Shown here in pieces: positions 1-38,576 of a stretch of 64,000 bases of DNA; positions within the stretch are counted from its first letter, which is position 1, and each line of letters starts with the position of its first letter. Location of the stretch: assembly GCA_014378525.1 (NCBI GenBank), contig JACMNL010000040.1:548-64547 (forward strand). Reading direction: 5' to 3'. Origin of the DNA: Bacteriovorax sp. GTDB taxonomy: Bacteria; Bdellovibrionota; Bacteriovoracia; Bacteriovoracales; Bacteriovoracaceae. Below the pieces are notes generated by a model. The model searched no databases. It was not told the origin of the DNA and worked only from the letters and a program-made list of their open reading frames with translations. The position numbers were made by a program, and so were the translations under genes.

Positions 1-1913
1 TTATCCCGCGTCTTACTGCCCTTTTCTGCTTTTTTGAAATCAACATCCAGTTCTGAGGAATGAACTCCTTCTGCATGCTCATCCTGCTCAGCTCGTCCAG
101 TTCGCCTTGATACTGAAGTAACTTCTGGAACACTTAAAATAAGCTCCTCTGCCTTTTGTCCAATCTTATTAGATTCTGTAAGGGAAATTCCAGGCTGACT
201 TAATAATCCGATCACTGCAGTCCCTTCATTAAACTTAGGTAAAAAATCTTTCCCTAAATGAGGAACAAGACTTAAAGAAAAAATAAAAAGAAGCCCAACA
301 ATTGAAAGTAACAAATAAGGTCGATCGAGAGTTTTCTCAAGAATTTTCTGGTCATATTTTTTTAAAAATCTTACTAAAAATCCATCCGGTTTCTCAAGAA
401 CTTCTGATTTCCCCAGAAGCAATGAACAAAGTACCGGTGTAACCGTAAGGGAAATAAATAAGGAAGCAATTAAAGAAACGATATATGAAATCCCCAACGG
501 GATAAATAATCGTCCTTCCAGGCCTCCAAGAAAAAATAATGGCAGGAAAACCAGTACAACTATGATGGTTGCAAATACAATTGAATTTCTCACTTCTGAG
601 GATGCTTCAAAAATAATTACCAGAGAAGATTTTTTCACTGGTGCATGACTATTTTCTTTAAGCCGTCTTAAAACATTTTCAACATCCACAATTGCATCAT
701 CTACAAGTTCTCCAATCGCAATGGCCAGACCCCCCAGAGTCATTGTGTTAATTGAAAGCCCAAACATTTTCAAAATGATAAATGTGGCCACAAATGAAAG
801 TGGGATCGCAGTCAAAGTAATCAAGGTCGTTCTAAAGTTCATTAAAAATAGAACCAGGACAATAATAATAAAAATACCGGCATCCCTTAACGCCTCTTCT
901 ACGTTGGAAATGGAATTTTTGATAAAATCGGCCTGCTTAAAAAGATGTCCATGAAGTTTCATTCCTTTCGGCAAAGTCGTTTCAATACTTTTTAAAACGA
1001 CATCAATCTTTTCTGTAAGCTCAATCGTGCTTGCCCCCGGCTGTTTCATAATACTCAGAATCACTCCAGGTTTAGCATTTATGCCTGCATCACCTCTTTT
1101 TATCTGGGAATCAACTTCAACTTTGGCAATATCTTTAACTAAAACAGGTTTTCCTAAATGTTTTCCAACGGCCGTATTTTCGATATCGCTGATATTTTCG
1201 GCCCTGGCCAGATTTCGTACCAGGTACTCCTGACCTTCTTTATCCAAATAACCACCGGTAGTATTCTGACTTAGTAGGTTTAAATTTTTTTCAACTTCTT
1301 CCAGATTCAATTGATAAAAATTCAACTTGCTCGCAGAAATTTTTATTTGATATTGTTTAACTCCACCACCAATTGAAATAACTTGTGAAACCCCGGAAAT
1401 ACTTAAAAGTCTCGGCCTGATAACCCAGTCTGCATAAGTTCTAAGGTCAATAGGATTTAATTCAGAATTATTTTCGAGCGATAATCCGATAAGCTGAATT
1501 TCTCCCATGATCGAAGAGATCGGACCCATTATAGGATTGGCCATTTTAGGTATTTGTTCTTTTGTTTCAATTAATTTTTCTGAAACCAACTGGCGATTTT
1601 TGAACACATCAGTTCCCCAGTCGAATTCAACATAGATAACAGAAAGTCCAACTCCAGATGTTGAGCGAACTCTATTAACACCAGGAAGTCCATTGAGAGC
1701 ATTTTCCAGTGGCAGTGTGATAAGTGTTTCTACTTCTTCAGGGGCCATTCCTTCAGCTTCAGTCATGATATTCACAGTCGGTCTGTTGAGATCAGGAAAT
1801 ACATCAACAGGAAGCTTCGTAAGAATGAAACCACCATAAATTAATATCACAACAGATAAAGCAACAACGAAAAGCCTGTTTTTCAAAGAAAATTTGATTA
1901 TATGATTGAGCAT
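1..1913 (-). CDS. CusA/CzcA-family heavy-metal efflux RND transporter (partial; runs off the window's left edge)
   Basis: Absent from the ORF track because no stop lies in the window. Manual translation from ATG 1913 gives MLNHIIKFSLKNRLFVV...LPVDVFPDLNRPTVNIMTEAEGMAPEEVE...GGLAIAIGELVDDAIVDVENV, the HME-RND signature. The frame is open to base 1. Confidence 0.93.
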   Translation of the reverse strand, partial: MLNHIIKFSLKNRLFVVALSVVILIYGGFILTKLPVDVFPDLNRPTVNIMTEAEGMAPEEVETLITLPLENALNGLPGVNRVRSTSGVGLSVIYVEFDWGTDVFKNRQLVSEKLIETKEQIPKMANPIMGPISSIMGEIQLIGLSLENNSELNPIDLRTYADWVIRPRLLSISGVSQVISIGGGVKQYQIKISASKLNFYQLNLEEVEKNLNLLSQNTTGGYLDKEGQEYLVRNLARAENISDIENTAVGKHLGKPVLVKDIAKVEVDSQIKRGDAGINAKPGVILSIMKQPGASTIELTEKIDVVLKSIETTLPKGMKLHGHLFKQADFIKNSISNVEEALRDAGIFIIIVLVLFLMNFRTTLITLTAIPLSFVATFIILKMFGLSINTMTLGGLAIAIGELVDDAIVDVENVLRRLKENSHAPVKKSSLVIIFEASSEVRNSIVFATIIVVLVFLPLFFLGGLEGRLFIPLGISYIVSLIASLFISLTVTPVLCSLLLGKSEVLEKPDGFLVRFLKKYDQKILEKTLDRPYLLLSIVGLLFIFSLSLVPHLGKDFLPKFNEGTAVIGLLSQPGISLTESNKIGQKAEELILSVPEVTSVSRRTGRAEQDEHAEGVHSSELDVDFKKAEKGSKTRD

Positions 1914-1926
1914 TTTGTCCTAAATG

Positions 1927-2262
1927 TTATTGATGTCTGCTTATTAATTTTATTAACTCTTCGACTTTTTCAGAAGCAAGTTTTTCATCTTTATGCTTAA
2001 CCGCTTCACTGACGCAACTATCAATATGTCTTTTGAGAATAGATTGCTCAACAGAGTACAAAGCAGATTTTGCAGCCCGTACCTGAATCAAAATATCCGG
2101 GCAATAAAGTCTTTGGTCGATCATACCAATAATCGCTCCAATTTGTCCTTTTGCCTTATTTAGTTTTATTTTTTCTTTCTTATGATCGGGATGTTGACCT
2201 TCTTCATGACAATGAAGTTTTGGGGGCATTTTCTTAACAATCTTTTTTTTATGAGTCGTCAC
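1927..2262 (-). CDS. csoR: CsoR/RcnR-family metal-sensing transcriptional repressor
   Basis: LNKAKGQIGAIIGMI..YCPDILIQVRAAKSAL..ILKRHIDSCV keeps the Cys-His-Cys ligand set. His-rich N-terminal extension. GTG start; alternative ATG at 2229. Confidence 0.88.
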   Translation of the reverse strand: MTTHKKKIVKKMPPKLHCHEEGQHPDHKKEKIKLNKAKGQIGAIIGMIDQRLYCPDILIQVRAAKSALYSVEQSILKRHIDSCVSEAVKHKDEKLASEKVEELIKLISRHQ

Positions 2263-2432
2263 AGATAACCCCTGTCATACGTATACCAAATTAAGGTATA
2301 AGATTATAAATTAACCTTACCCCACAGAGGTTTAACTTTTATATCGGGAATACGGTAATAAGGTGGTTATTGTGACATTGACGGGAACTTACCAGCTAGA
2401 ACATGTTCCCAGGAGATTAAGTCGCCGTTTTA

Positions 2433-2801
2433 CTACATTTTCATATCATTTGAATCTTTCATCATCTTATGGCAGTCATTTTCATCCATTTTCATCTGAC
2501 ATTTATCCAAAGTATTTTTGTTGCATAAGGTTTTATCTTTATGAATCTTCATGCAATCTTTCATCATGATATTCATTTTTTTCATTTCGCCCTTATCCAT
2601 TGTTCCGTCTTTACCTGTCACTTCCATCCCGTTCATTTCCTTGCTGTCCATTTTCATTTCATTATTTTTTTCACTCACAATTTTTGTTTCAGCATGGTGA
2701 ACTTCGTGGGAATCATTGATCGCTTGAGCATAAGAATAACTCAAGGTCATAGAACTAATTAATAAAGCAAAAGATATTTTTGATATAAATTTAGATTTCA
2801 T
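2433..2801 (-). CDS. Exported Met/His/Cys-rich protein, putative periplasmic copper-binding protein
   Basis: Start moved to ATG 2801 (AGAGGA RBS). Signal peptide MKSKFISKISFALLISSMTLSYSYA. Mature part has 16 Met, 5 His and 4 Cys. Divergent from copA. Confidence 0.65.
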   Translation of the reverse strand: MKSKFISKISFALLISSMTLSYSYAQAINDSHEVHHAETKIVSEKNNEMKMDSKEMNGMEVTGKDGTMDKGEMKKMNIMMKDCMKIHKDKTLCNKNTLDKCQMKMDENDCHKMMKDSNDMKM

Positions 2802-2950
2802 AATAATTCCTCTCTTCGTTAATAAATTATCAGACATGACATATGCAAATAATAAGAGCAAATTTAGACAAGCTCCATGATTCAGATCATGTTTCTATTG
2901 AATTAAAAAAATTAAAATTATTAATAGTTACTTATTCAAAAGGACGCCAA

Positions 2951-5071
2951 TTGGAAAAAAATATTGAGTACACTTGTCCAATGCACCCGAAAGTCAGACA
3001 ACTCGGTCCAGGCAATTGCCCTATATGTGGAATGAATCTAGAGCCGGTTGAGATTAATCTTAACGAAGAAGAAAATACTGAATATCATTTAATGTTTAAA
3101 CGATTTTTAATAAGTGCTGCCCTTTCCCTGCCACTTCTATTTATTACGATGGGTGGAAGAAACTTCATTCATCAAGAAAGTATTATTCCATATCTAAAGT
3201 GGATAGAGCTGCTTATTGCAACACCTGTCGTTCTATGGGGAGGCTGGCCATTCTTCTTGAAGTTTTGGCAATCATTAAAAAATAAAAATTTAAATATGTT
3301 CACATTAATCGGCCTTGGAACAGGGGTCGCATATGGATACAGTCTTGTGGCCGTACTTTTTCCACAACTTTTTCCAGACTCGTTTAAAGATTCAATGACT
3401 GGAGAAGTAGGTTTATATTTTGAAGCGTCTTCTGTTATCGTAACACTTATCTTACTTGGACAAGTATTGGAATTGAAGGCCCGTGGACAAACAAGTGCAG
3501 CAATCAAGGCCCTGCTCGGTCTTTCGCCAAAAACTGCGAAAAGAATTAATGCTGATAATACCGAAATAGATATACCTCTCGAACAGGTTGTCCAGAATGA
3601 TCGACTTCGTGTTAGACCGGGTGAAAAAATACCAGTTGATGGTGTTGTTATGGATGGCAATTCATCTGTTGATGAATCTATGATTTCCGGTGAATCCTTA
3701 CCAATTGAAAAAATTGTTGGCTCAAAAGTTATAGGGGCTACTATTAATGCCACCGGCACGTTTATCATGAAGGCCGAAAAAGTTGGTAAAGACACTTTAT
3801 TATCACAGATTGTTCAAATGGTTTCTGAAGCCCAAAGATCAAGAGCACCTATTCAAAAACTTGTGGATGTTGTTGCAGGATATTTTGTTCCCATAGTTAT
3901 TTTAATTTCAATCATCACAGCAATTACCTGGTCGATTTTTGGTCCCGATCCAAAACTTGCTCACGCTATCGTTAACGCCGTTGCCGTTTTAATTATCGCT
4001 TGCCCCTGCGCTCTTGGACTAGCTACCCCGATGTCTATTATGGTTGCGACTGGAAGGGCAGCGACGATCGGGATACTTTTTAAGAATGCTGAGGCCATTG
4101 AAGAAATGAGAAAAGTTAATACACTGGTTGTTGATAAAACCGGAACACTCACAGTTGGAAAACCAAAACTTGTCATTATAAAAAGTGCTGGGGTCATAAG
4201 TGAGAATGAACTTCTCTCTTTTGCTGCCAGTCTAGAAAAAGTGAGTGAGCATCCCCTCGCTCTTGCCATTGTCGATGGAGCGAAAGAAAGAAATATAAGC
4301 CTAGTTGAGGTTACAAATTTTTCATCTGTAACTGGTAAAGGTATTCAGGCAAATTATCAGACAAAAATAATTGCAATCGGAAATAGAGCGATGATGGATG
4401 ATCTATCTGTTGATTATAAAAACTTTGATAAAGAAATGGATATATTACGTGAGGATGGACTTACAGTTATGTTTGTGGCCGTAGATAATCAACTTGCGGG
4501 CTTTATTGGAGTCGCTGATCCAATTAAAGATACAGCGCCTGTCGCAATCAAAGCACTTCAAAATCTAGGAATAAAAGTTGTAATGATCACAGGCGATAAT
4601 ATTAAAACGGCTCAAGCTGTAGCAAAAAAAGTTGGTGTAGATGCATTCCATGCAGATGTTTTACCTCAAATGAAAGCAGAATTAGTAAAAGAGATGCAAA
4701 AAGAAGGAAGATTTGTTGCGATGGCCGGAGATGGTATCAACGATGCTCCTGCTCTGGCCCAGGCACAAGTAGGCATTGCAATGGGAACCGGTACAGATGT
4801 CGCCATGAATAGTGCAGGTATTACTCTCGTAAAGGGTGATCTTATGGGAATTCTAAAAGCACGAGCTTTGAGTGAAAAAACGCTTACAAACATCAAGCAA
4901 AATCTTTTTTTTGCTTTTATCTACAATATCGTCGGAGTTCCACTGGCCGCTGGTGTTTTATATCCATTTTTTGGAATACTCTTAAGTCCAATCATTGCTG
5001 CTGCAGCAATGAGTTTGAGTTCAATATCTGTTGTCTTCAATGCTCTACGATTAAAACATTTAAAAATATGA
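2951..5071 (+). CDS. copA: Copper-translocating P1B-type ATPase
   Basis: YTCPMHP..CPICGM metal-binding domain, TGES-like [31 protein letters not shown] and MSLSS motifs. Likely start is TTG 2951 after AGGA; the ORF track starts at 2843. Confidence 0.95.
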
Positions 5072-5240
5072 AAGTTGTCGCATATCTAATATGTTAACTA
5101 AAAACGAATAATGCACACATGGGAAAAATTATTTTTCCACTTTAAATTTAAATTTCATATAGATGATCTATATCATTCAATTTAATTCATTATTAAACTA
5201 TCCTGTTAAAAGTTCTCTTATAATTTACGAAGGAGTTTTA

Positions 5241-5597
5241 ATGAATTCGATCTATAAAGTGTTTGCATTTCTTTTAATCACAAATCTTGTCAGCTGTGCT
5301 TCACATTCAACAATGAGAGGAAGTGTAGCAATGAAAATCAGTGATACAGAAGCACATGTATGTTTAGGAAATACTGAAGTTAAGGTTGGGGACATAATCA
5401 ATGCATATAAAAATGTTTGCTCAAATTTAAGTTCAAATGTGATTAATAAGAATAGCAGAGCTTCGGAATTAGCTCCTTGTAAAAAAGTAAAAATTGGTTC
5501 TGGCAAAATTACTAGTTTAATTAATGATCATTATTCAGTTGTAAAATTCGATAATGTTGTAGATTTTAATGAAGGTACAATTATCGAGAAGCAATAA
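5241..5597 (+). CDS. Hypothetical lipoprotein
   Basis: ATG 5241 after AGGAG; lipobox LVSC; beta-rich, with 3 further Cys; directly downstream of copA. Confidence 0.7.
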   Translation: MNSIYKVFAFLLITNLVSCASHSTMRGSVAMKISDTEAHVCLGNTEVKVGDIINAYKNVCSNLSSNVINKNSRASELAPCKKVKIGSGKITSLINDHYSVVKFDNVVDFNEGTIIEKQ

Positions 5598-5688
5598 TTT
5601 TAAACTAACAGATTCTAACAGGTTCCAATAGACTTTTAATGTACCTAACGCGCATTCGCACTGTGGCCATTTAGTACTTTAAATATCT

Positions 5689-5704
5689 TGGTGCATACTT
5701 TGCA
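5689..5704 (+). promoter_or_regulatory. Candidate sigma54 -24/-12 promoter
   Basis: TGGTGCATACTTTGCA has GG-N10-GC spacing with TTGCA and lies 55 nt before ATG 5760. Confidence 0.4.
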
Positions 5705-5759
5705 TAGTTAAGTTTCTAAACGAAGATTAAATTCATACATTCGTGTTAGGGACTTAAAA

Positions 5760-7436
5760 ATGATCGAAAACAAAAAAAAGACTGTTGCTATTTTTGGTGC
5801 TGGAATATCAGGTTTAACTGTGGCCCATGAATTTTCAAAACGGGGCTATTTAGTAAAAGTTTTTGAAAGTAATTCAGAGGCCGGTGGTTTTTTCAGAAGT
5901 GCCAGAAGAAAAAAAGATAACAATATGCCTTCTGAATATTCATGGCATGGAATGGGCCCCTGGTATCACAATGTTTATTCACTGTTAAAAGAAATTCCCT
6001 TTGATAATGAATCAAGTCTCTATGATCAAATTCTTTCACGTCCAATTGATTTTGGGCTTGCCGGCAACTCCGGTCGCACAGAGTTTGATGATTTAAAAGG
6101 TTTGTCAGTTGATGTAAAAAAAATGTTCCGTTTAACGACTAAAGATACCTGGCTCTGGTATTGGATCATGTTTAAGGCCTGGTGTTCAAACAAACGTAGT
6201 TATCAACACTACTCGACTCTTAATGCAAAAAAAGTCTGGGGCAATTTTTTAAGCCCACTAGGTATTAATACCTGGAGTTCGACGTTTGGCCCCTGGGTTG
6301 GTTCGGATTGGTGTAATGTTTCATTTCATCAGGTAGCAAAATTTTTCAAAGCACAATTGACTTCAAAACCATCTCACTTTCACAAGGCTGACGAAGAAGG
6401 TGGCCCCTGGGAACACAAGGCCCGTTCTGGCTGGCTTTTACTTAAAGGCCCAAGTAGCGAAATGTGGTTTGATAAATGGGTTTCATACTTAAAAAAATTA
6501 AATGTCGAATTTAACTGGGATGAAGAATTAATAAAATTGGACTTCGATGGAGTAAATATTCAATCTGCAACCACAGCAACCAATAAAAAAGTAGAAGCAG
6601 ATATTTATGTTATGGCCATTAATCCATTTTTTTTAGCTAATATAATTGATCGCACTAAGGCCTTAGCAAAACTCCCCGAACTCAATTTATTCCGCGGATT
6701 AGTTCAAGATGGCCCTCATGTACAAGTGTCTTTCAGAATAGGTTTCAGTGAACAAATCAAATGGCCACGCAAAAGATGTGGTTTAGTGATTGAAGACTCG
6801 GCCTTTAATCTGACTTTATTTTCTGAAGAGCAAGTTTGGAATAAATCTGTCTTTTTAGGAAAAAATATAAAATCACTTTGGACAGTTACTGCCTGTGTTT
6901 CAAAGATACCAGGACCTGTTCACAAGACTCCGCTTAATAATTGCACCAAGGAGCAATTTATAGATGAAGTTATGTTTCAACTTAAAGAATGTTCAGGTCT
7001 GGATAAATTAATCAAAGAGGCCAATAACGGTAAGAGCTGGACAGAGTATAGAATAGAAGAAGTTGAGGTTTGGCATGAGTGGGTTTTTTCTCCAGAAGGA
7101 ATAAGTTCTCCCCAGCCAAAATGGGTCAATACCACCAATACTCAAAAGTACATGCCGTCCCAGAAAACGACAATTCCAAATCTGGTTTTGGCGGGTGCTC
7201 ATACGAAGACCTCTGTAGATGTCTGGAGTATTGAAGCGGCAGTGGAAAGCGGCAAACTTGCTGCTAAAGTATATGAACCCGAGGTAGAAGTTATTGGCCA
7301 ACACAATCCAGTTTTCTTTAGAGTCATTTCCAGGATTGATGATTTACTTTTTTCATTGATGCTGCCAAATGTCTTAGATCTAATGCTAGTTATTATTTTT
7401 TTAGGATCGTTAATACTTTTATATCACTTACTATAA
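5760..7436 (+). CDS. FAD-dependent oxidoreductase (amine oxidase/carotenoid desaturase-like) with C-terminal TM helix
   Basis: VAIFGAGISGLTVAHE..GYLVKVFE..AGG dinucleotide fold; C-terminal NLVLAGAH..SIEAAVESG motif. Confidence 0.8.
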   Translation: MIENKKKTVAIFGAGISGLTVAHEFSKRGYLVKVFESNSEAGGFFRSARRKKDNNMPSEYSWHGMGPWYHNVYSLLKEIPFDNESSLYDQILSRPIDFGLAGNSGRTEFDDLKGLSVDVKKMFRLTTKDTWLWYWIMFKAWCSNKRSYQHYSTLNAKKVWGNFLSPLGINTWSSTFGPWVGSDWCNVSFHQVAKFFKAQLTSKPSHFHKADEEGGPWEHKARSGWLLLKGPSSEMWFDKWVSYLKKLNVEFNWDEELIKLDFDGVNIQSATTATNKKVEADIYVMAINPFFLANIIDRTKALAKLPELNLFRGLVQDGPHVQVSFRIGFSEQIKWPRKRCGLVIEDSAFNLTLFSEEQVWNKSVFLGKNIKSLWTVTACVSKIPGPVHKTPLNNCTKEQFIDEVMFQLKECSGLDKLIKEANNGKSWTEYRIEEVEVWHEWVFSPEGISSPQPKWVNTTNTQKYMPSQKTTIPNLVLAGAHTKTSVDVWSIEAAVESGKLAAKVYEPEVEVIGQHNPVFFRVISRIDDLLFSLMLPNVLDLMLVIIFLGSLILLYHLL

Positions 7437-30375: not shown

Positions 30376-31662
30376 TTATTTATCAGTACTTCTTCTTTTC
30401 GTAGTATTTTCAATATTTGTAAGAAGCATCGGATATCGTTTTACGATGTCATTGAAACTTTTCTTGGTAAGCTTATAAAGATCACAATAGGTCAATGACT
30501 GGACATCCGCGATTCTTTTAGTTTCTTTTAATAAGGCCAGTTCTCCGAAAATCTGTCCGTCATGTAGAGTCGCGACTCTCTCACCGTTCTCTAAAATGAC
30601 TTCCACACTCCCGTGAGAGATAATAAACATCTCTTCGCCGATATCACCTATTTTGATAACCATGTCACCTGGAGAAGAAAAAACCTGCTCCATGTGATTT
30701 GATATTTCTTTTAAACACTCATGAGGGCAGTCATGAAAAATATGAATATTGCTGATGAGTTTAATCTTCATATAAATCTGCATCTCCTGTTGAAGGGCAT
30801 GCGGTAGATCGGCAATAATTTTTTCATCATCTTCGCTCAGGCGTTTTGAATAAATGTGATTGTAATGATTGATCGCTGCCTTTTGAAGCTGGTCGGGAAT
30901 TTTATAATGTTTCATGAACATCAATAGTCCCGTAATTTTTTCACGCGTCTGTTCCTTATATCTATCGGCACTCGCAAGGATACGTGAAATATTTCCGATG
31001 ACGATCCCGTACATACCCACTCCGATGATCATAATGAGACAGGTATAAATTCTTCCGCCGTTGGTGTGGGGAACAATATCTCCATATCCAATTGTCGTTA
31101 AAGTAGCGAGGGCCCAGTAAAACGATCTGATGTAATAACTCGTGATGTCCGTTTCAACGCTCATCGGATAAATAATAATCCATCCACAGGCAATCCAGTT
31201 CACGACCATCAAACAGCCAACGGCAATTGACTGGATCTTAAAAATTCGCGGGACGATTGTGATATTTTCGATCAGGTAATAAACCTTGATGATCCTCACC
31301 ATTCTCATCAGCCTGAATGCCATGAATAAATCTTCGTGACCTAAGTAATACGAAAGAAGGTCAAAAGGTATGCAGGCCAGAACATCCACCGTCAGCATTA
31401 ACGGAAAAAACCATTTTTTATGATTAATTGTGATGTCTGTTTTTACTTTTGATTTTTTTAATTCATTGAGATGATAAATCAGGTCGGCCACAAAAAGGAT
31501 TGAGATGACGGCATCAATCACCAGCTGCCATGGATGTATGGATGTTTTAAAAACAAAACTAAAGGGTGCTTCCATCGCAGTAAAACTGGCCGCCCAAAAG
31601 ATGATGGCCACCCAAAGAAACTCTTTAGTGCTCAAATGTTTTTTGTCAGATTTTTGAAACAT
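30376..31662 (-). CDS. Cyclic-nucleotide-gated K+ channel (SthK/LliK type)
   Basis: Six TM segments, filter TTIGYGD, C-linker, CNBD with FGELAL..RIADV. Confidence 0.92.
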   Translation of the reverse strand: MFQKSDKKHLSTKEFLWVAIIFWAASFTAMEAPFSFVFKTSIHPWQLVIDAVISILFVADLIYHLNELKKSKVKTDITINHKKWFFPLMLTVDVLACIPFDLLSYYLGHEDLFMAFRLMRMVRIIKVYYLIENITIVPRIFKIQSIAVGCLMVVNWIACGWIIIYPMSVETDITSYYIRSFYWALATLTTIGYGDIVPHTNGGRIYTCLIMIIGVGMYGIVIGNISRILASADRYKEQTREKITGLLMFMKHYKIPDQLQKAAINHYNHIYSKRLSEDDEKIIADLPHALQQEMQIYMKIKLISNIHIFHDCPHECLKEISNHMEQVFSSPGDMVIKIGDIGEEMFIISHGSVEVILENGERVATLHDGQIFGELALLKETKRIADVQSLTYCDLYKLTKKSFNDIVKRYPMLLTNIENTTKRRSTDK

Positions 31663-31774: not shown

Positions 31775-32299
31775 ATGAAAACATTAAAACTCATCCCTTT
31801 CGTTCTACTATTATCCCTATCTGCATTCGCTGCGACAGATCTCAAAGTCGGCGATCCTGCTATTCCCTTCAAGTTAAAAACTCAGGAAGGAAAAGAGTTT
31901 GATTTGAACTCAAGAAAAGGAAACTGGACTGTTCTTTATTTTTTTCCAAAGGCAGAAACACCGGGATGTACAAAACAGGCATGCAGCTTTCGCGATAACA
32001 TAAAAAAAATTCGCGACATGAAAACTGAAGTTTACGGCATCAGTACAAACAATGTTAAAGACCAGGCCGACTTTGCCAAAGCTCACGCTCTGAATTTTAT
32101 CCTGCTTGCCGATGAAAAAGCTCAAGTCGCCAACGACTACGGATCAAAAATGCCTGTACTGAATATGTCAAAGAGATGGACTTTCATCATCGACCCGAAT
32201 CTTGTCATTCGAGATATCGCAAAAGATGTTGACCCGATCACAGACGCACAAAGAGTGGCCACTAGAATTGGTGAACTTCAAAAGACAGCGATAAAATAA
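31775..32299 (+). CDS. bcp: Exported peroxiredoxin, BCP/PrxQ subfamily
   Basis: YFFPKAETPGCTKQAC, RWTFIID; signal peptide. Confidence 0.9.
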   Translation: MKTLKLIPFVLLLSLSAFAATDLKVGDPAIPFKLKTQEGKEFDLNSRKGNWTVLYFFPKAETPGCTKQACSFRDNIKKIRDMKTEVYGISTNNVKDQADFAKAHALNFILLADEKAQVANDYGSKMPVLNMSKRWTFIIDPNLVIRDIAKDVDPITDAQRVATRIGELQKTAIK

Positions 32300-32300
32300 T

Positions 32301-32963
32301 ATAAAAGCTCAAATAGACCTCGATAAGCTCTGTCTTGAAGTCTGCTCTGAATTTAAGGCGCAGGGTTTTTCAATAGACATTGACCCCCGTACTCAAAAAG
32401 AAAGTTACAACATAATCAAGCAGCAGAGCGGCCAGTGGTTGAAAATTACGAAGCTCTCGCTTCATGATAATCCAGTGCAGACTCCACTCGACTTTACTCT
32501 CATGCCGGTTTTAAAAAAACTCACTGACCTGATTGATGAACTCGATTCAGAAATTAAGAAAAAAGGCGGCAGGATTTTTATCACTGAAAGTGTCGTCACA
32601 AAAATAAAAAAAGGAACAGAAACATCAGTGCTGGTAGAAGAGAAAAAAACCAAATTAGCGGTCTATCAAAAATTATGTGATGAAATAACAAGTAAGGGTC
32701 TCGAGAGAGACAGGTATCGTACAGAAGAAACTTATATGCTCACGAAGGCAGCTAATGGCGAATGGTCGATGAGCACCAGTCACGAAAATCATAGCGGTAC
32801 AAAAACTATTCTGGATCTTGCAAAAATGCCTCTGTTAAAAGCACTTGCCATCAAAATCAACCGCGCCGATCCACAGTTTCAATCCAATGGCGGAAGGATC
32901 TTCATCACTCCCGCCAGAATTTACAAGCTGAAAAATAAAATAGAACAGGATTTTAAATTCTGA
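32301..32963 (+). CDS. Hypothetical protein of two ~108-aa tandem repeats, apparent ATA start
   Basis: The frame is open from 32295. Repeat homology (CSE/CDE, ESY/ETY, GQW/GEW, MPVLK/MPLLK, GGRIFIT x2) extends about 30 codons upstream of the first canonical start (TTG 32439). Confidence 0.6.
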   Translation: MKAQIDLDKLCLEVCSEFKAQGFSIDIDPRTQKESYNIIKQQSGQWLKITKLSLHDNPVQTPLDFTLMPVLKKLTDLIDELDSEIKKKGGRIFITESVVTKIKKGTETSVLVEEKKTKLAVYQKLCDEITSKGLERDRYRTEETYMLTKAANGEWSMSTSHENHSGTKTILDLAKMPLLKALAIKINRADPQFQSNGGRIFITPARIYKLKNKIEQDFKF

Positions 32964-33305
32964 TTATTTTCCCAGAAATTTAATCAGGTCATCAGCACCA
33001 CCGATAAGTTTTCCATCGATGAAAACCTGAGGGTATGTAGGCCACCCGCTCCAGAGTTTAATCGCAAGACGCTGCTTCCATTTAGAAAAATAGTTACCGT
33101 AAGATAAATATTTATATTCCATGTTTGATTCTTCAAGAACCTTGCGCGCTTTTTTAACGACAGGGTTTTGTCCCATGCCGACCACAACAATTTTATTTTT
33201 TTCAACAGCACTGATAACTTCAGAAACAACATCTGAATTATTTTGGGCCATAAATTTTAAAGCGTCCGGGTGAATTTGAGTTTCTGGTAAAATTTTGCGA
33301 TTCAT
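32964..33305 (-). CDS. Glutaredoxin-fold protein with no cysteine
   Basis: WPTYPQVFIDGKLIGGADDL glutathione-site motif; the active-site position reads GQNPVV; there is no Cys in the 113 aa. Confidence 0.85.
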   Translation of the reverse strand: MNRKILPETQIHPDALKFMAQNNSDVVSEVISAVEKNKIVVVGMGQNPVVKKARKVLEESNMEYKYLSYGNYFSKWKQRLAIKLWSGWPTYPQVFIDGKLIGGADDLIKFLGK

Positions 33306-33316
33306 AAAATCTCCAT

Positions 33317-35062
33317 TTAGTTATTAAATTGTTTCTCAATTAATTTTTTGTAAAATCCGTCATTGTTTAAAATAAGTTCACCGTGGGATCCGGCCTGCAC
33401 AATCTGTCCGTGGTCCATGACGAATATTTTATCTGCCTTTTTCACAGTAGAAAGCCTGTGGGCAATGATAAGAGTCGTACGGCTTTTTTGCAGGTTTTCC
33501 AGTGCGGCCTGAACCAGAGCTTCACTCTCGCTATCAAGAGCACTCGTCGCTTCATCAAGAATCAGAATTTTTGGATCTTTTAAAACGGCACGGGCAATTG
33601 CCACTCTTTGCTTTTGTCCCCCTGATAACTGTACACCTTTTTCTCCTACCAGTGTCTGATATCCGTCAGGAAAAGCTGTGATGAAATCATGAGCATAAGC
33701 AAGTCTTGCTGCTGACTGGACTTCTTCCAGAGTTGCATTCGGTTTTCCATATCTAATATTGTCTTCGATAGACTCTGAAATAAGAATCGGCTCCTGAGAA
33801 ACAATCCCCACCTGATTTCTTAGTGCATACAAATCGTAATCTTTGATATCAAGTCCATCGATTAATATCTTTCCGCTGTTTAAATCATAAAAACGCATCA
33901 ACAGCTGGGCGATTGTTGACTTCCCCGCTCCTGATGAACCTACGATAGCAATGGTTTCATTCGCCTCTATCTTCATCGAAAGTTTTTTCAAAACTAGCAC
34001 ATCACTTCTGGCCGGATATGAAAATTCTGCATTTTCAATTTCAATTAACCCGCGCGAAATATTTTTAAGTGGTTTATGAAAATTTTCTTCATTCACTGTT
34101 GCTGTATCTAATAGTTCAAAGATCCTGTGACCTGCACCAAATGCCGACATAAAATCAGTATATAAACTGCCTAGAAGACCAGCTGAAAAGGCCACTGTCA
34201 TGACATATAAAATGTACGAAGTCAGAGTTCCGATACTCATCTCACCACTTATTACAAATCGCCCGCCTAACCAGACTATAAAGACAACTGCAACAAATCC
34301 GAGTATAGAAACTGCCCCGGTAAATTTTGAAACGACAGAAATTCTCGCCACAGATAAATTAAATGATTTTTGCAGTTGATTATCGTATCTATCGCTTTCC
34401 CATTTTTCCTGGGCAAAGGCCTTTACGGTGCGAACACCGGAAATGCTTTCTTCAGCAACTCCTGAAGAAACAGCAAGTGCATCCTGAGTGGATTTTGAGA
34501 TCGACTTAACTTTTTTTCCGAAGACCGCCACCAGATAAGCGATCGGTGGAACAATCAGTAAAATAAAAATGGTCAATTTTGTCGATGTGATGAAAAGTAG
34601 AATGACTCCTCCGATGGTCTGTACAAGATTTCTGATCAACATCGAAATATTTACACTCAATGCATTTTGCAAAACCGCTGTATCAGAAGAAAGCCTGCCT
34701 AAAAGTTCACCAGTTTTTGAAAAATCAAAAAAAGGCATCTCCTGGGAAATAATTTGTGAAAATAATTTTGCTCTTAAACGTTTAACTGTTTTTTCACCGG
34801 CCAGTGTGAAATAGTAATAACGAAAACTGGAAGAAATTCCCTGGATAACAAATACTCCTAAAGCAATAAGGGCAGCGTAGTTCAGTGAATTGATATCCTT
34901 CGTTTTAAGCGCATTATCAATGATCGCCTTGATGTATTGAGGATAAACCATCAGCGCAGCACTACTGATTAAAAGAAAAATCATTCCCTTTATAAGAAGA
35001 GGCCATTCTTCGCGGCTTAAACTAAGCAGTTTTAAAAAGAAAGCTTTATTATTATTTTTCAT
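33317..35062 (-). CDS. Type IV ABC exporter, fused TMD-NBD (MsbA-related/ABCB-like)
   Basis: Six TM segments, GSSGAGKST, LSGGQKQR, ILDEATSALD, IAHRLST. Confidence 0.95.
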   Translation of the reverse strand: MKNNNKAFFLKLLSLSREEWPLLIKGMIFLLISSAALMVYPQYIKAIIDNALKTKDINSLNYAALIALGVFVIQGISSSFRYYYFTLAGEKTVKRLRAKLFSQIISQEMPFFDFSKTGELLGRLSSDTAVLQNALSVNISMLIRNLVQTIGGVILLFITSTKLTIFILLIVPPIAYLVAVFGKKVKSISKSTQDALAVSSGVAEESISGVRTVKAFAQEKWESDRYDNQLQKSFNLSVARISVVSKFTGAVSILGFVAVVFIVWLGGRFVISGEMSIGTLTSYILYVMTVAFSAGLLGSLYTDFMSAFGAGHRIFELLDTATVNEENFHKPLKNISRGLIEIENAEFSYPARSDVLVLKKLSMKIEANETIAIVGSSGAGKSTIAQLLMRFYDLNSGKILIDGLDIKDYDLYALRNQVGIVSQEPILISESIEDNIRYGKPNATLEEVQSAARLAYAHDFITAFPDGYQTLVGEKGVQLSGGQKQRVAIARAVLKDPKILILDEATSALDSESEALVQAALENLQKSRTTLIIAHRLSTVKKADKIFVMDHGQIVQAGSHGELILNNDGFYKKLIEKQFNN

Positions 35063-35468
35063 ATTTTATATCTTTAGTTAGATGAGATAGTTTAATCCTG
35101 CTCAGGATTAATAAATGAGCAGACTCAAGTCTCGAGGACAATTTTAAGAGTATTCCCTGCGCCGTACAGCTGACGTCACAGTTTGATTTTATTTTCTTTT
35201 CAACGTTTCCGGCCACGCGGTCATTGGCCACCAGATATATTTCCTTAAGACTGATGTCCTTGGGATTTTTTAGCAGACTGACTCCACCGGCCTGGCCTCT
35301 TTTGGTTTGGATCAGACCTGCACGAGCGAGTTTGGCCATGATCTTTCTGATAAAAGCAGGATTGGTTCCCAGGCTTTTTGCCAGTGATTCAGAACTCTGC
35401 TCCTCTTCCTTTTTTACAGCAAGATTGATCATGATCTTTAATGTGGTATCGAAATGTGAATCGAGCAT
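35052..35468 (-). CDS. Rrf2-family transcriptional regulator
   Basis: SSESLAKSLGTNPAFIRKIMAKLARAGLIQTKRGQAGGVSLLKNPKDISLKEIY; CDVSC motif. Confidence 0.9.
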   Translation of the reverse strand: MLDSHFDTTLKIMINLAVKKEEEQSSESLAKSLGTNPAFIRKIMAKLARAGLIQTKRGQAGGVSLLKNPKDISLKEIYLVANDRVAGNVEKKIKSNCDVSCTAQGILLKLSSRLESAHLLILSRIKLSHLTKDIKYEK

Positions 35469-35470
35469 TT

Positions 35471-35527
35471 TGTAACTTCCATAATTACATTAGAAATTCA
35501 GGTTATAATGTAACTTTTAAAATTACA
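35471..35527. promoter_or_regulatory. Twin palindromic operator, probable Rrf2 autoregulatory sites
   Basis: TGTAAC-N7-ATTACA occurs at 35471-35489 and again at 35509-35527, directly upstream of the Rrf2 start. Confidence 0.65.
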
Positions 35528-35610: not shown

Positions 35611-36099
35611 ATGAAATCAATTATCGTAGCTGTTTTTCTTTTAGGATTATCTTCAGTATCTGTTAAAGCTGCAGACCATGACTATCAATGTATTGCTGAC
35701 TCTCTTCAAGCTATCAACAACGACATCTACTACAACCTTTCTTCAACAGACATCGATATTATGTTAACAATTCCGGAAATGATGGGACATATCGATGCCA
35801 TCAATGCAGCTAAGAGATGTGACGCTCCAAAAGCTTGTAATGGAAACTTCGAAGCGCAATTTATAGGTAAAGCTCAGAACGTAGATCTTTCATATGCTGA
35901 AGCGGGAAACGTTGAACACACAACTTTTGGTGTTGGTGAATTCACTCATTACCAGGCTAACCAGCTTTGCCCTCTAGATGAGGCCACTGCTTTAAAAGCA
36001 AGAATCTGGGTTCAGGGAATTTTAACTCTTCAAAACGGTGATGCAGTTTCTGGTGTACTTGTTTACAATCCAAAATTTAACATGTTCTCAATCGAATAA
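35611..36099 (+). CDS. Hypothetical exported protein
   Basis: AAGGAG RBS, signal peptide, 4 Cys, high-expression codon bias. Confidence 0.75.
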   Translation: MKSIIVAVFLLGLSSVSVKAADHDYQCIADSLQAINNDIYYNLSSTDIDIMLTIPEMMGHIDAINAAKRCDAPKACNGNFEAQFIGKAQNVDLSYAEAGNVEHTTFGVGEFTHYQANQLCPLDEATALKARIWVQGILTLQNGDAVSGVLVYNPKFNMFSIE

Positions 36100-36250: not shown

Positions 36251-37153
36251 ATGCGTAATTTACTGATCTGCTTAACTCTTATTTCTGTTGTTTCATGTGC
36301 ACCAAAAAATACATCACCAACTAACAATGTTAAAAATTCTTCAATCATCAACGGATCAAACGTAAAAGAAAACGATGCCATCAATAAAAGTATTGTGGCC
36401 GTTTTAAATACTAAATCACAATACCTGTGCACAGGATCCCTGATTGCACCAAACATTATTCTGACTGCTGCTCACTGTGCTCCAGACCGCATCTCAAATG
36501 TAAAAATTATTTTTGGAACTGACATCGATAACATCATGGGCTCACTTGAACCAGATGTGAAAGATGAGCATATTCTTCAGGCAGTAGATTTTAAAGTTAG
36601 CTCATCATGGAATCCAAAAGACGAAACACGTGAAATCGACACTGGCGATATCATGCTTATTAAATTCAAAGGAAATGTGCCTGAGGGGTACGCTCCAGCT
36701 ACATTTTTAGCTGATGACAGCTCTCTTAAAATTGGTACGGTGGTTACTGTAGCAGGTTATGGTGTAGACGATGTTGATACATCTAAAGAAGTAAATATTA
36801 AAAAATTTCCAAACCTGGAAGATGCAATTCAATCTGGTGAAGTAACTTGCCAAGATGAGGCCAATGGAAAACACGCACATTGTTTTAAAGTTCAAATGAG
36901 TGGAGATGGAATTCTTCGCACGACTAAAGCTCCGATCAACTTTATTCATGAAACAGAGATCAACCTGAATGAGACGAAGTCCGGCACATGCAGCGGTGAC
37001 TCCGGAGGTCCTGCTTATATCGAGAAAAACGGCGATTTTTTTCTGTTTGGTGTAACCAGCAGAGGTTCAGGACTTTGCAATGAAGTCGGTGTGTATACCA
37101 ACGCTCTATTCTATAAAGACTGGATTGCGGCAACAATCAAGGCATTTAACTAA
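36251..37153 (+). CDS. Trypsin-like (S1) serine protease, lipoprotein
   Basis: Lipobox VVSC; LTAAHC, GDIML and GDSGGP carry the catalytic triad. Confidence 0.93.
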   Translation: MRNLLICLTLISVVSCAPKNTSPTNNVKNSSIINGSNVKENDAINKSIVAVLNTKSQYLCTGSLIAPNIILTAAHCAPDRISNVKIIFGTDIDNIMGSLEPDVKDEHILQAVDFKVSSSWNPKDETREIDTGDIMLIKFKGNVPEGYAPATFLADDSSLKIGTVVTVAGYGVDDVDTSKEVNIKKFPNLEDAIQSGEVTCQDEANGKHAHCFKVQMSGDGILRTTKAPINFIHETEINLNETKSGTCSGDSGGPAYIEKNGDFFLFGVTSRGSGLCNEVGVYTNALFYKDWIAATIKAFN

Positions 37154-37167
37154 TTTTTTTGACATAG

Positions 37168-37199
37168 GATCATAGGTTATCGATCATTAACCTATGATC
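37168..37199. repeat. Perfect 12-bp inverted repeat overlapping the mgtE start
   Basis: GATCATAGGTTA-tcgatcat-TAACCTATGATC; the ATG at 37194 is inside the right arm. Confidence 0.85.
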
Positions 37200-38576
37200 A
37201 ATTTAAAAGAAATTACGAAAAAAGTTTTGCATGGAGATTTCAGCGCGCTGATTTCTTACGGGCACACAAAAAAAAATGTTCACCCTAACGATGTGGCGAA
37301 AGTCCTTGAGTCTGTTCCCAAGACTAATGCAGCTCAGGCATTTTGTTCATTACCTCATCATACACAGATAAAAGTTCTTCCCTATCTGGACCTGATTCTT
37401 CAAAAAGAAATTGTTCATACGCTGGAAAAGCAGAAAGCAGGAATTATTTTAAATGAAATGACATCCGATGACCGTGTGGCCTTACTGTCAACGTTCAGTG
37501 GTGTTGACCGCTCGACTTTCGTTGCGATGTTAAACCCGGAAAATAAAGATGAAGTTCATGACATTTTTGGTTACCCGGAAAATAGTGTTGCAAGATTACT
37601 TAACACAGACTTTGCGACGATTAGTCCCGATGTTACGATTGCAGAGGCCATGGTTCACCTGAGAAAAAACCATAAAGACTCTGAAGCCGCAAACGTTATT
37701 TACGTTGTCAGCGAAGATGAAAAACTTCTCGATGACATTCCTGTAAGAAGATTTGTTTTAAATGATCCTGAGAAAAAAGTTTCGGAAATCTTAGACGGGC
37801 ATTTTATCTCACTTAAAATGTCGGATACAAAAGATATTGCGATAGCAAAATTCAAGGAATACGACCGCACGGTATTACCGGTGACAAATGAAGAAAGAGT
37901 TCTACTAGGCGTTTTAACGATCGATGACGTGCTGGATATCGCGGAACAAAAAGATACAAAAGAAATTCAAAACTTCGGGGGGGTTGAAGGACTCGACTTT
38001 CCATACGTGAAGACCGGTTTTTTCTCCCTGATTAAAAAAAGAGCTACGTGGCTTATCGTTTTATTTGTCGGTGAAATGCTGACGGCCACAGCGATGGGGT
38101 ATTTTGATGCTGAAATTTCAAAGGCCGTTGTTCTCGCGCTTTTTGTCCCGCTAATTATCTCCAGTGGAGGTAATAGTGGTTCTCAGGCGGCAACTTTAAT
38201 CATCAGAGCGATGGCCTTGAACGAACTCACGATTAAAGACTGGTGGTTTGTTATGAGAAGGGAAATTTTATCAGGTCTGACGTTAGGACTTCTTCTCGGG
38301 ACTATTGGATTCATCAGAATTTCAATCTGGCAAAACATGCACTGGTTTAATTACGGCCCACACTGGTTTTTAATTGCACTGACAATTTTCTTTTCGCTGA
38401 TTGGAATTGTTATGTGGGGAACATTGAGTGGATCAATGATTCCTATATTGCTTAAAAAATTAAAACTGGACCCTGCGACTTCATCAGCACCACTGGTGGC
38501 GACGATTGTCGACGTTACCGGATTGATTATTTATTTTTCAATTGCTGCATTTATTCTGAAGGGAACTGTTTTATAA
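37194..38576 (+). CDS. mgtE: Magnesium transporter MgtE
   Basis: MgtE_N domain, CBS pair, TIDDVLD, PLIISSGGNSGSQA, DPATSSAPLVATIVDV. Confidence 0.95.
   Translation: MINLKEITKKVLHGDFSALISYGHTKKNVHPNDVAKVLESVPKTNAAQAFCSLPHHTQIKVLPYLDLILQKEIVHTLEKQKAGIILNEMTSDDRVALLSTFSGVDRSTFVAMLNPENKDEVHDIFGYPENSVARLLNTDFATISPDVTIAEAMVHLRKNHKDSEAANVIYVVSEDEKLLDDIPVRRFVLNDPEKKVSEILDGHFISLKMSDTKDIAIAKFKEYDRTVLPVTNEERVLLGVLTIDDVLDIAEQKDTKEIQNFGGVEGLDFPYVKTGFFSLIKKRATWLIVLFVGEMLTATAMGYFDAEISKAVVLALFVPLIISSGGNSGSQAATLIIRAMALNELTIKDWWFVMRREILSGLTLGLLLGTIGFIRISIWQNMHWFNYGPHWFLIALTIFFSLIGIVMWGTLSGSMIPILLKKLKLDPATSSAPLVATIVDVTGLIIYFSIAAFILKGTVL

Follow-up and report, generated by a model that had tools for sequence, protein, structure and literature searches.

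What might a glutaredoxin without any cysteine do at the end of an operon that also encodes an exporter and a regulator? A 64,000-nucleotide stretch of Bacteriovorax sp. DNA (Bacteriovoracaceae, Bdellovibrionota; assembly GCA_014378525.1, contig JACMNL010000040.1, positions 548 to 64,547; hereafter the window) raises this question with three minus-strand genes for an Rrf2-family protein, an ATP-binding cassette (ABC) half-transporter and a glutaredoxin-like (Grx-like) protein. The locus as a whole is best explained as an autoregulated stress operon, in which a thiol-switch Rrf2 would control an exporter together with a Grx-like accessory for a glutathione ligand. Taken with all its parts, this explanation is about evenly poised between right and wrong. 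The features concerned, in window coordinates, are the following.

35052-35468, minus strand: Rrf2-family repressor, probably of the HypR/SifR/YwnA-like class, 138 amino acids, with a Pfam Rrf2 match and the cysteines Cys97 and Cys101
33317-35062, minus strand: ABC half-transporter, a type IV exporter (TIGR02204-like/ABCB10-like), 581 amino acids, with a six-transmembrane (6-TM) ABC_membrane domain and a nucleotide-binding domain (NBD)
32964-33305, minus strand: cysteine-less glutaredoxin-fold protein (Grx-like), 113 amino acids, with a Pfam Glutaredoxin match and an AlphaFold model
35471-35489, no strand assigned: proximal operator box TGTAA-N9-TTACA, from a motif scan, kept in four orthologous loci
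35509-35527, no strand assigned: distal operator box TGTAA-N9-TTACA, from a motif scan, kept in four orthologous loci
33306-33316, minus strand: spacer between the ABC and Grx-like genes, 11 nucleotides (nt), with a GGAG Shine-Dalgarno motif, read from the sequence

The Rrf2 and ABC genes overlap by 11 nt (35052-35062). The GGAG motif at 33311-33314 (plus-strand numbering) inside the 11-nt gap between the ABC and Grx-like genes suggests that the latter two are coupled in translation. Three coupled genes with an overlap and a gap of these sizes had been described in an earlier interpretation made without database searches (the sequence-only reading), and this geometry agrees with the coordinates read here.

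The Grx-like protein matches Pfam Glutaredoxin with 29.4 bits (cut-off 22.9) and remains well under the cut-off of the TIGR00365 Grx4 model (40.1 versus 117.1 bits). Its AlphaFold model (pLDDT 88) has the Grx fold, and Foldseek relates this model to Grx2, GLRX3 and GLRX5 with TM values of 0.61-0.69 and a probability of 1.00. By sequence, the class II CGFS glutaredoxins are nearest (PDB, NCBIfam). WPTYPQ (W88-P-T-Y-P-Q93) and GGADD are present and cysteine is absent from the entire protein, which is for this reason unable to perform thiol chemistry, to enter mixed disulfides or to ligate an iron-sulfur (Fe-S) cluster, as the sequence-only reading had claimed. The active-site loop reads G43-M-G-Q-N47-P48-V-V-K-K-A. 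HMMER places V50 at the position of the missing cysteine, MAFFT and the helix start in the model place N47 there; we favour N47 as the probable substitute. Homologues are publicly annotated as 'glutaredoxin' or 'monothiol glutaredoxin', labels that are misleading for this cysteine-less family.

One search returns 1,348 homologues at E <= 0.001, and a profile search of the family yields 360 cluster representatives at E <= 1e-10. Members are encoded at no fewer than 537 genomic loci; the locus analysis covers the best 80, which belong to Bdellovibrionota, Myxococcota, Betaproteobacteria and Gammaproteobacteria. The active-site loop is free of cysteine in all of the 120 nearest members. Of these, 66 contain no cysteine anywhere, and most of the others carry one in the GG-C position, which is non-catalytic. 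In 81 sequences drawn from three phyla the loop takes the form G-M-x-x-N-P-x-[VP]-[KR]-[KR]-A, and 23 positions are >=97% conserved. R79 and K83 are invariant, T90 occurs in 77 and D/E106 in 78 of the 81 sequences, and G102-G103 is kept; we take R79, K83, T90 and D/E106 to align with the glutathione-contacting residues of canonical Grxs. The sequence retains about half of the canonical glutathione contacts, the remainder being replaced by the new invariant loop. Family conservation extends to Y66, Y72, W76, W85, W88 and the N-terminal R3, none of which canonical Grxs possess, and to an N-terminal motif M-x-R-x-x-L without canonical counterpart. Orthologous Grx-like proteins are 57-81% identical and their synonymous sites are saturated, so that dN/dS is only qualitative; the Grx-like protein is evidently a selected, functional protein.

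In 20 of the 80 loci, distributed across Bacteriovoracia and Bdellovibrionia, the Grx-like gene directly follows an ABC orthologue (50-84% identity). All 20 are low in GC and represent the families Bacteriovoracaceae, Halobacteriovoraceae, Bdellovibrionaceae and Pseudobdellovibrionaceae; most are labelled Bdellovibrionota, two carry generic labels only. At most junctions other than that of the window, there is either a 4-nt overlap (often ATGA) between the ABC and Grx-like genes or a distance of at most about 20 nt. An Rrf2 gene beside the pair was not found by tblastn in the 80 public-genome loci and occurs only in close relatives. Rrf2 orthologues (75-87% identity) are present in four of 28 other genomes of the genus, each time immediately upstream of the ABC gene, so that all three genes stand together in only five species, which belong to a single genus. 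Of the three-gene module proposed in the sequence-only reading, the ABC-Grx adjacency stands, while the Rrf2 synteny ends with these five species. By this distribution, the ABC-Grx unit is much older and wider than its regulator.

Five Bacteriovoracaceae-type loci (L004, L006, L019, L041, L057) have a divergent XRE-family helix-turn-helix gene upstream of the ABC and Grx-like genes. Its product (84-97 amino acids, Pfam HTH_3; e.g. L006:3915-4208, minus strand) takes the place that Rrf2 has in the window, so one and the same ABC-Grx module has come under more than one kind of regulator. Other loci show other company. In three Oxalobacteraceae (L063, L076, L077; Oxalicibacterium, Herminiimonas; approximately 1600-6360) the Grx-like gene is the last of an MFP-RND (AcrB-type) operon, and this upstream MFP-RND system is the sole repeated neighbour outside Bdellovibrionota. 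The Grx-like gene closes an RND-ABC-Grx cluster in L023:1096-6348. RND systems are a second type of efflux pump found beside it. In a Bacteriovorax with the Grx-like gene 200 kb from the ABC gene (L005:5998-8301), it lies directly upstream of genes for a PuuD-type membrane urate oxidase (Urate_ox_N) and a HIU hydrolase of the transthyretin family.

Both genes also follow each other through genomes. The same 61 related genomes were searched with both proteins, at E <= 1e-120 for the ABC protein and E <= 1e-25 for the Grx-like protein. The two genes are present together in the same 14 genomes and both absent from the other 47. In five of these 14 the genes are unlinked, being on separate contigs or at a distance of 200 kb, and the co-occurrence is therefore not that of one cassette counted twice. 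In a sample of 121 Burkholderiales genomes, 11 possess the Grx-like gene and 54 the ABC orthologue, which passes the TIGR02204 cut-off in this order. The ABC gene is found in 10 of the 11 genomes with the Grx-like gene versus 44 of the 110 without it (40%; p = 0.0013). In the genomes sampled, the distribution of the Grx-like gene is nested inside that of the pump, and the Grx-like gene is almost never found alone. Pump and Grx-like protein are very probably coupled in function, and the tie between the two that the sequence-only reading had drawn is borne out by a conserved, often translationally coupled adjacency and by co-occurrence even where the genes are unlinked.

The ABC protein matches PF00664 ABC_membrane with 209.6 bits and PF00005 ABC_tran with 115.5 bits. 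Its Walker A (GSSGAGKST), signature (LSGGQKQR), Walker B (ILILDEATS), H-loop (IAHRLST) and Q-loop motifs are intact. Of the NCBIfam models, TIGR02204 MsbA_rel fits best, with a score of 610.2 bits that lies under its cut-off of 780.4 bits; the Massilia counterpart passes this cut-off (840.4 bits), and the window protein is 38-42% identical to proteobacterial members. Mitochondrial ABCB10 is the nearest solved half-transporter (450 bits). The best 60 PDB matches, all >=363 bits, comprise ABCB1/4/11/10/9/8, plant ABCB, yeast, parasite and algal ABCB-type proteins and MsbA, and no Atm1/ABCB7 chain is among these 60. The MRP model reaches 208 bits (cut-off 1470), and the CydD and CydC models give full-length but weaker similarity (275 and 223 bits). 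With no Atm1 in the best 60 matches and only 208 bits for MRP, the analogy to ABCB-type exporters of glutathione adducts, which the sequence-only reading had invoked, is no family relationship: the pump is of the TIGR02204-like/ABCB10-like, not of the Atm1/ABCB7 or MRP type.

The regulator is a clear Rrf2 protein (PF02082, 92.9 bits, cut-off 30) that falls just under the cut-off of TIGR00738 (71.0 versus 73.3 bits). Its best specific NCBIfam model is HypR (NF041852), at 47.5 bits versus an equivalog cut-off of 180; the IscR and NsrR models yield 32 bits (cut-off 207) and 29.5 bits (cut-off 182), respectively. The nearest PDB matches are the YwnA-type proteins 1YLF and 1XD7 (YwnA). C97 and C101 (CDVSC) are its only cysteines, in accordance with the CxxxC pair noticed earlier, and the motif is invariant in the orthologues. 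C97 aligns with the single conserved cysteine of these two YwnA-type proteins (NPDCPIG in 1YLF). The protein does not possess the three-cysteine (plus His/Asp) Fe-S ligand set, nor any third cysteine or histidine motif. Given 47.5 versus 180 bits and the lack of Cys33, it is of the same class as HypR but not a HypR orthologue. No other clear Rrf2 is present in the genome: a second copy was not found by tblastn; a profile-based search gives one weak extra match (contig C46, E = 6.6e-6).

Paralogues of the Rrf2 protein elsewhere in the phylum are about 40% identical and mostly share the motif C-x-V-S-C. Those with CxVSC are divergent to old-yellow-enzyme Oxidored_FMN genes (4 loci) or to a Flavodoxin_2 quinone-reductase gene (e.g. 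L087:1498-3084, L094:1495-2603), and an approximately 30% identical paralogue without the second cysteine (L096:1447-2862) is divergent to a MerA-like Pyr_redox_2 gene. Twin boxes of the form aATGyAA-N9-TTrCATt, read by eye, precede the paralogue in 8 of 11 regions. These loci (L086-L100) look like a hypR-merA/ywnA-like electrophile regulon in a Gram-negative predatory phylum. Such gene company is typical of electrophile and oxidant sensors, and from it we infer the kind of signal that the Rrf2 would sense.

Two operator boxes precede the Rrf2 gene. The proximal box (35471-35489) is TGTAACTTCCATAATTACA and the distal box (35509-35527) is TGTAACTTTTAAAATTACA; in coding-strand reading the two are ATTGTAAT-N7-AGTTACAT and AATGTAAT-N7-AGTTACAA. 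Both TGTAAC-N7-ATTACA palindromes of the sequence-only reading are hence found. In the window, TGTAA-N9-TTACA occurs twice versus 0.11 expected, and none of 100 shuffles reached two. Across the genome (3.6 Mb) this loose motif is at chance level, with 11 occurrences versus approximately 10 expected, whereas the strict TGTAAC-N7-ATTACA occurs three times, two of them at the operon. Nowhere else in the genome do two perfect boxes lie close together; a pair of matches with one mismatch each is found on contig C70. The third strict match (contig C129) was considered as a further Rrf2 target and set aside, as by eye it seems to lie inside coding sequence.

Only 2 nt separate the proximal box from the Rrf2 ATG, and a GGAAG ribosome-binding site lies within the spacer of this box. 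The distal box abuts the candidate -10 hexamer TATAAC (minus strand, 35502-35507), at which the promoter scan made no call of a -10. Both boxes are present in the four orthologous loci, with half-sites kept and the distal spacer free to vary. There, the proximal spacer keeps a GGAAG/GGGAG ribosome-binding site, and TATAAC, TATAAT, TATAGC or a similar hexamer comes directly after the distal box; this hexamer is the likely -10. SifR of Streptococcus pneumoniae binds a 19-bp TGTAA-N9-TTACA operator, and the same core is described for HypR of Staphylococcus aureus (PMC9218516). The HypR operator, TAATTGTAACTA-N3-CAGTTACAATTA, overlaps the -10 (PMC6067689), and the operators of both proteins are validated by electrophoretic mobility shift assay and anisotropy (PMC6067689, PMC9218516). 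The half-sites of the window boxes are identical in sequence to this HypR/SifR core. We consider it probable that the Rrf2 is a thiol-sensing repressor of the HypR/SifR/YwnA class controlling its own operon via the twin boxes. The thiol- or electrophile-sensing role assigned to it in the sequence-only reading gains from the shared operator core, the YwnA-type relatives and the paralogues flanking old-yellow-enzyme, quinone-reductase and MerA-like genes.

The genome encodes a full-length GshB-like protein with GSH-S_N and GSH-S_ATP domains, under the NCBIfam equivalog cut-off, as well as 8-9 GST-like genes and, on another contig, a canonical pair of BolA-like and CGFS Grx genes. This CGFS Grx shares the SNWPTYPQ...GG signature with the Grx-like protein nearly letter for letter. 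Judged by its gene content, the organism clearly handles glutathione. The GshB-like gene (contig C144; L101:5-2043) lies directly downstream of a gene for a 'putative aminopeptidase' (PF10023).

The following course of events would account for the operon. An Rrf2 dimer would bind both boxes, of which one adjoins the probable -10 and the other covers the leader with its ribosome-binding site. Once Cys97, probably together with Cys101, is oxidised or alkylated by oxidants, quinones or other electrophiles, Rrf2 would leave the DNA and its own gene and the two downstream genes would be switched on. The ABC and Grx-like proteins would form one functional unit, a homodimeric type IV exporter with a cytosolic, non-catalytic Grx-fold protein. 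The exporter would remove a harmful or surplus compound; the Grx-like protein would bind this compound or its glutathione-tagged form and either present it to the pump or gate the pump. The ligand side would consist of the Arg/Lys/Thr-cis-Pro/GG-x-x-Asp elements of the glutathione groove and the new invariant, aromatic-rich loop. Most likely the Grx-like protein assists the exporter as a soluble factor that binds a ligand or gates the pump. That its ligand contains glutathione, be it a conjugate, glutathione disulfide (GSSG) or reduced glutathione (GSH) itself, is possible, with chances somewhat short of even, and hand-off of a glutathione conjugate from the Grx-like protein to the pump is plausible. 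Only tentatively do we extend this to the entire family, whose members might be dedicated cytosolic subunits of TIGR02204/ABCB10-like exporters that recognise glutathione-tagged or other cargo or gate the pump.

Several observations weigh against this explanation. Glutathione binding by the Grx-like protein is not assured, since the 81 sequences have lost the active-site cysteine as well as the lysine preceding it and vary at position 105. Glutamate-cysteine ligase was not found with PF04262, PF04107 and PF03074 in a genome that is 93% complete, the PF03074 search being without positive control; the predator may obtain gamma-Glu-Cys or glutathione from its prey. The E-value thresholds of the co-occurrence search were picked after viewing the score distributions, and its Fisher p-values, that of the 61 genomes being 4e-14 (uncorrected), overstate independence because the genomes are phylogenetically related and most of the 61 belong to one genus. 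Most Burkholderiales genomes with the ABC gene are without the Grx-like gene, from which it follows that the pump can work without the Grx-like protein. A constant neighbour of the Grx-like gene was not found outside Bdellovibrionota, where 30 same-strand neighbours resolve into 48 Pfam families, none in more than three loci. Finally, no ABC-Grx fusion is among the best 150 profile matches in 1.84 billion representatives, and evidence of this kind for physical contact is accordingly lacking; the long matches of that search turn out to be chimeric gene calls or multi-Grx proteins of eukaryotes.

The main rival is a role as ligand-independent scaffold or regulator. The Grx-like protein would then be a pseudo-enzyme unrelated to glutathione that helps in assembly or acts as an allosteric regulator by docking on the exporter (e.g. 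on its NBDs) or some other protein; the kept Grx motifs would serve the fold only, and the cargo would be a lipid, a peptide, a porphyrin-like molecule or a drug. We rate this as doubtful, although much of the family's divergence suits it: the catalytic cysteine and the preceding lysine are lost, the invariant G-M-x-x-N-P loop and the aromatics Y66, Y72, W76, W85 and W88 are new, and the conserved M-x-R-x-x-L is foreign to canonical Grxs. The exporter, too, is nearest to ABCB10, ABCB1, TAP-like transporters and MsbA, not to Atm1/MRP. A precedent is provided by the plant CC-type glutaredoxins, which PMC11887855 describes as redox-inactive Grxs acting purely via protein binding. A fold alone, however, would not need the invariant R79 and K83, the nearly invariant T90 and the kept GG-x-x-D/E, and the best 80 loci all stem from glutathione-using lineages (Pseudomonadota, Myxococcota, Bdellovibrionota).

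Two further explanations concern thiols or iron. The Grx-like protein could sense the GSH/GSSG pool and throttle an exporter of glutathione or another thiol to the periplasm, the system serving redox poising instead of pumping conjugates. The retained glutathione-side residues, the full-length similarity of the exporter to the thiol/heme exporters CydD/CydC, the suitability of an oxidant-sensing Rrf2 control and a Bcp-type peroxiredoxin nearby (31775-32299) speak for this, but CydDC-type models score far under TIGR02204 and the link to an RND drug-type pump in other lineages fits detoxification better; sequence alone cannot separate redox poising from conjugate export, and we judge the former unlikely. 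Rrf2 proteins often bind Fe-S clusters, and RsrR needs only two cysteines plus residues of the other subunit. The Rrf2 could hence be an Fe-S regulator (IscR/NsrR/RsrR-like), the operon one for iron or Fe-S homeostasis, and the Grx-like protein a degenerate relative of Grx4/Grx5. In keeping with this, the Grx-like protein stems from the Fe-S-handling class II branch, its WPT[YF]PQ is nearly identical to that of the genome's CGFS Grx, and ABCB10 relatives are reported to be linked to mitochondrial iron and heme metabolism. Such a role is nevertheless very improbable: the Rrf2 has only two cysteines, four residues apart, and no third cysteine or histidine motif, the operator is of the HypR/SifR and not the IscR or NsrR type, the partners of the paralogues are flavin and quinone reductases, and the Grx-like protein has no cysteine for a cluster while a normal BolA and CGFS Grx pair exists elsewhere in the genome.

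A 174-amino-acid open reading frame (ORF; 32439-32963, plus strand) without Pfam or NCBIfam match is convergent to the Grx-like gene, their stop codons abutting. On the other side, a 162-amino-acid ORF (35611-36099, plus strand), which has no family match but seems to start with a signal peptide, is divergent from the Rrf2 operon and shares with it the 142-bp intergenic region that bears the operators; its co-regulation is doubtful because the four orthologous loci do not have this upstream flank in common with the window. The peroxiredoxin (Bcp/AhpC-TSA, Pfam 119 bits; 31775-32299, plus strand), approximately 0.7 kb from the operon, has an N-terminal signal-like hydrophobic stretch and may be a secreted or periplasmic thiol peroxidase. 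From translation alone, 30376-31662 (minus strand) is K+-channel-like, with a TIGYGD filter and a C-terminal cyclic-nucleotide-binding-like region, 36251-37153 (plus strand) is a putative secreted trypsin-like serine protease with TAAHC and GDSGGP motifs, and 37194-38576 (plus strand) is a putative MgtE-type Mg2+ transporter.

The literature searched holds no published description of this cysteine-less Grx family or of its pairing with an ABC exporter, and both the family and its near-obligate association with an exporter family appear to be undescribed in the searchable literature. The Rrf2 adds a new member to a class that, like its operator, is already known, and the exporter stands apart within a family that is known but uncharacterised. 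Exporters of the TIGR02204 type are common (54 of the 121 Burkholderiales sampled) and the closest bacterial relatives of mitochondrial ABCB10. If the proposal holds, a Grx-like companion with a recognisable ligand groove would offer an experimental entry to the cargo of the pump. It would also provide a clear bacterial example of a pseudo-enzyme turned to a new use, a Grx fold under strong selection after the loss of its sole catalytic residue, for which the plant CC-type glutaredoxins are the comparable cases so far. The HypR/SifR thiol-switch class, known from Firmicutes, would reach Bdellovibrionota with the same operator, and its recruitment to an efflux module would suggest that the pump matters to these predators under oxidant or electrophile stress. 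Should the family indeed consist of dedicated subunits, no cytosolic partner for substrate recognition or regulation would have been described before it for a type IV ABC exporter; the long-sought bacterial GS-X (glutathione-conjugate) pump would be in hand, and the disputed cargo of the ABCB10 branch would become easier to approach.

Among known systems, HypR and SifR resemble the regulator most. They share the Rrf2 winged-helix domain without the three-cysteine Fe-S set, a conserved cysteine near residue 100 that corresponds to C97, a TGTAA-N9-TTACA core that overlaps the promoter, and autoregulation in an operon with the target gene; furthermore, the paralogues repeat hypR-merA-like and ywnA/OYE-like (old-yellow-enzyme) pairings. 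In contrast to HypR, the Rrf2 lacks Cys33 and has a second cysteine four residues past the first (CxVSC) instead. It differs from both HypR and SifR in possessing two boxes 30-38 bp apart, and in having an ABC exporter and a Grx-like protein as target, not a reductase or dioxygenase. The Grx-like family has the fold of the class II CGFS Grxs (Grx4/GrxD, Grx5, GLRX3) and their C-terminal R-x-x-x-K-x-x-S-x-W-P-T-x-P-Q ... G-G, but carries N-P-x-[VP]-[KR]-[KR]-A in place of CGFS, has no preceding lysine, and adds invariant aromatics and a conserved N-terminal extension. The exporter is a half-transporter with a 6-TM ABC_membrane domain and an NBD like TIGR02204 proteins and ABCB10; it scores under the TIGR02204 family cut-off, and a soluble Grx-fold partner is not reported for either in the literature searched. 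With Atm1/ABCB7, MRP/ABCC and KefC/KefF the proposed system shares the concept that electrophile stress leads to glutathione adducts and these to export or efflux gating, although the exporter is no relative of Atm1/MRP. KefC/KefF is a K+ efflux system gated by glutathione adducts, and KefF shows that a soluble subunit with an enzyme fold can serve a membrane efflux protein.

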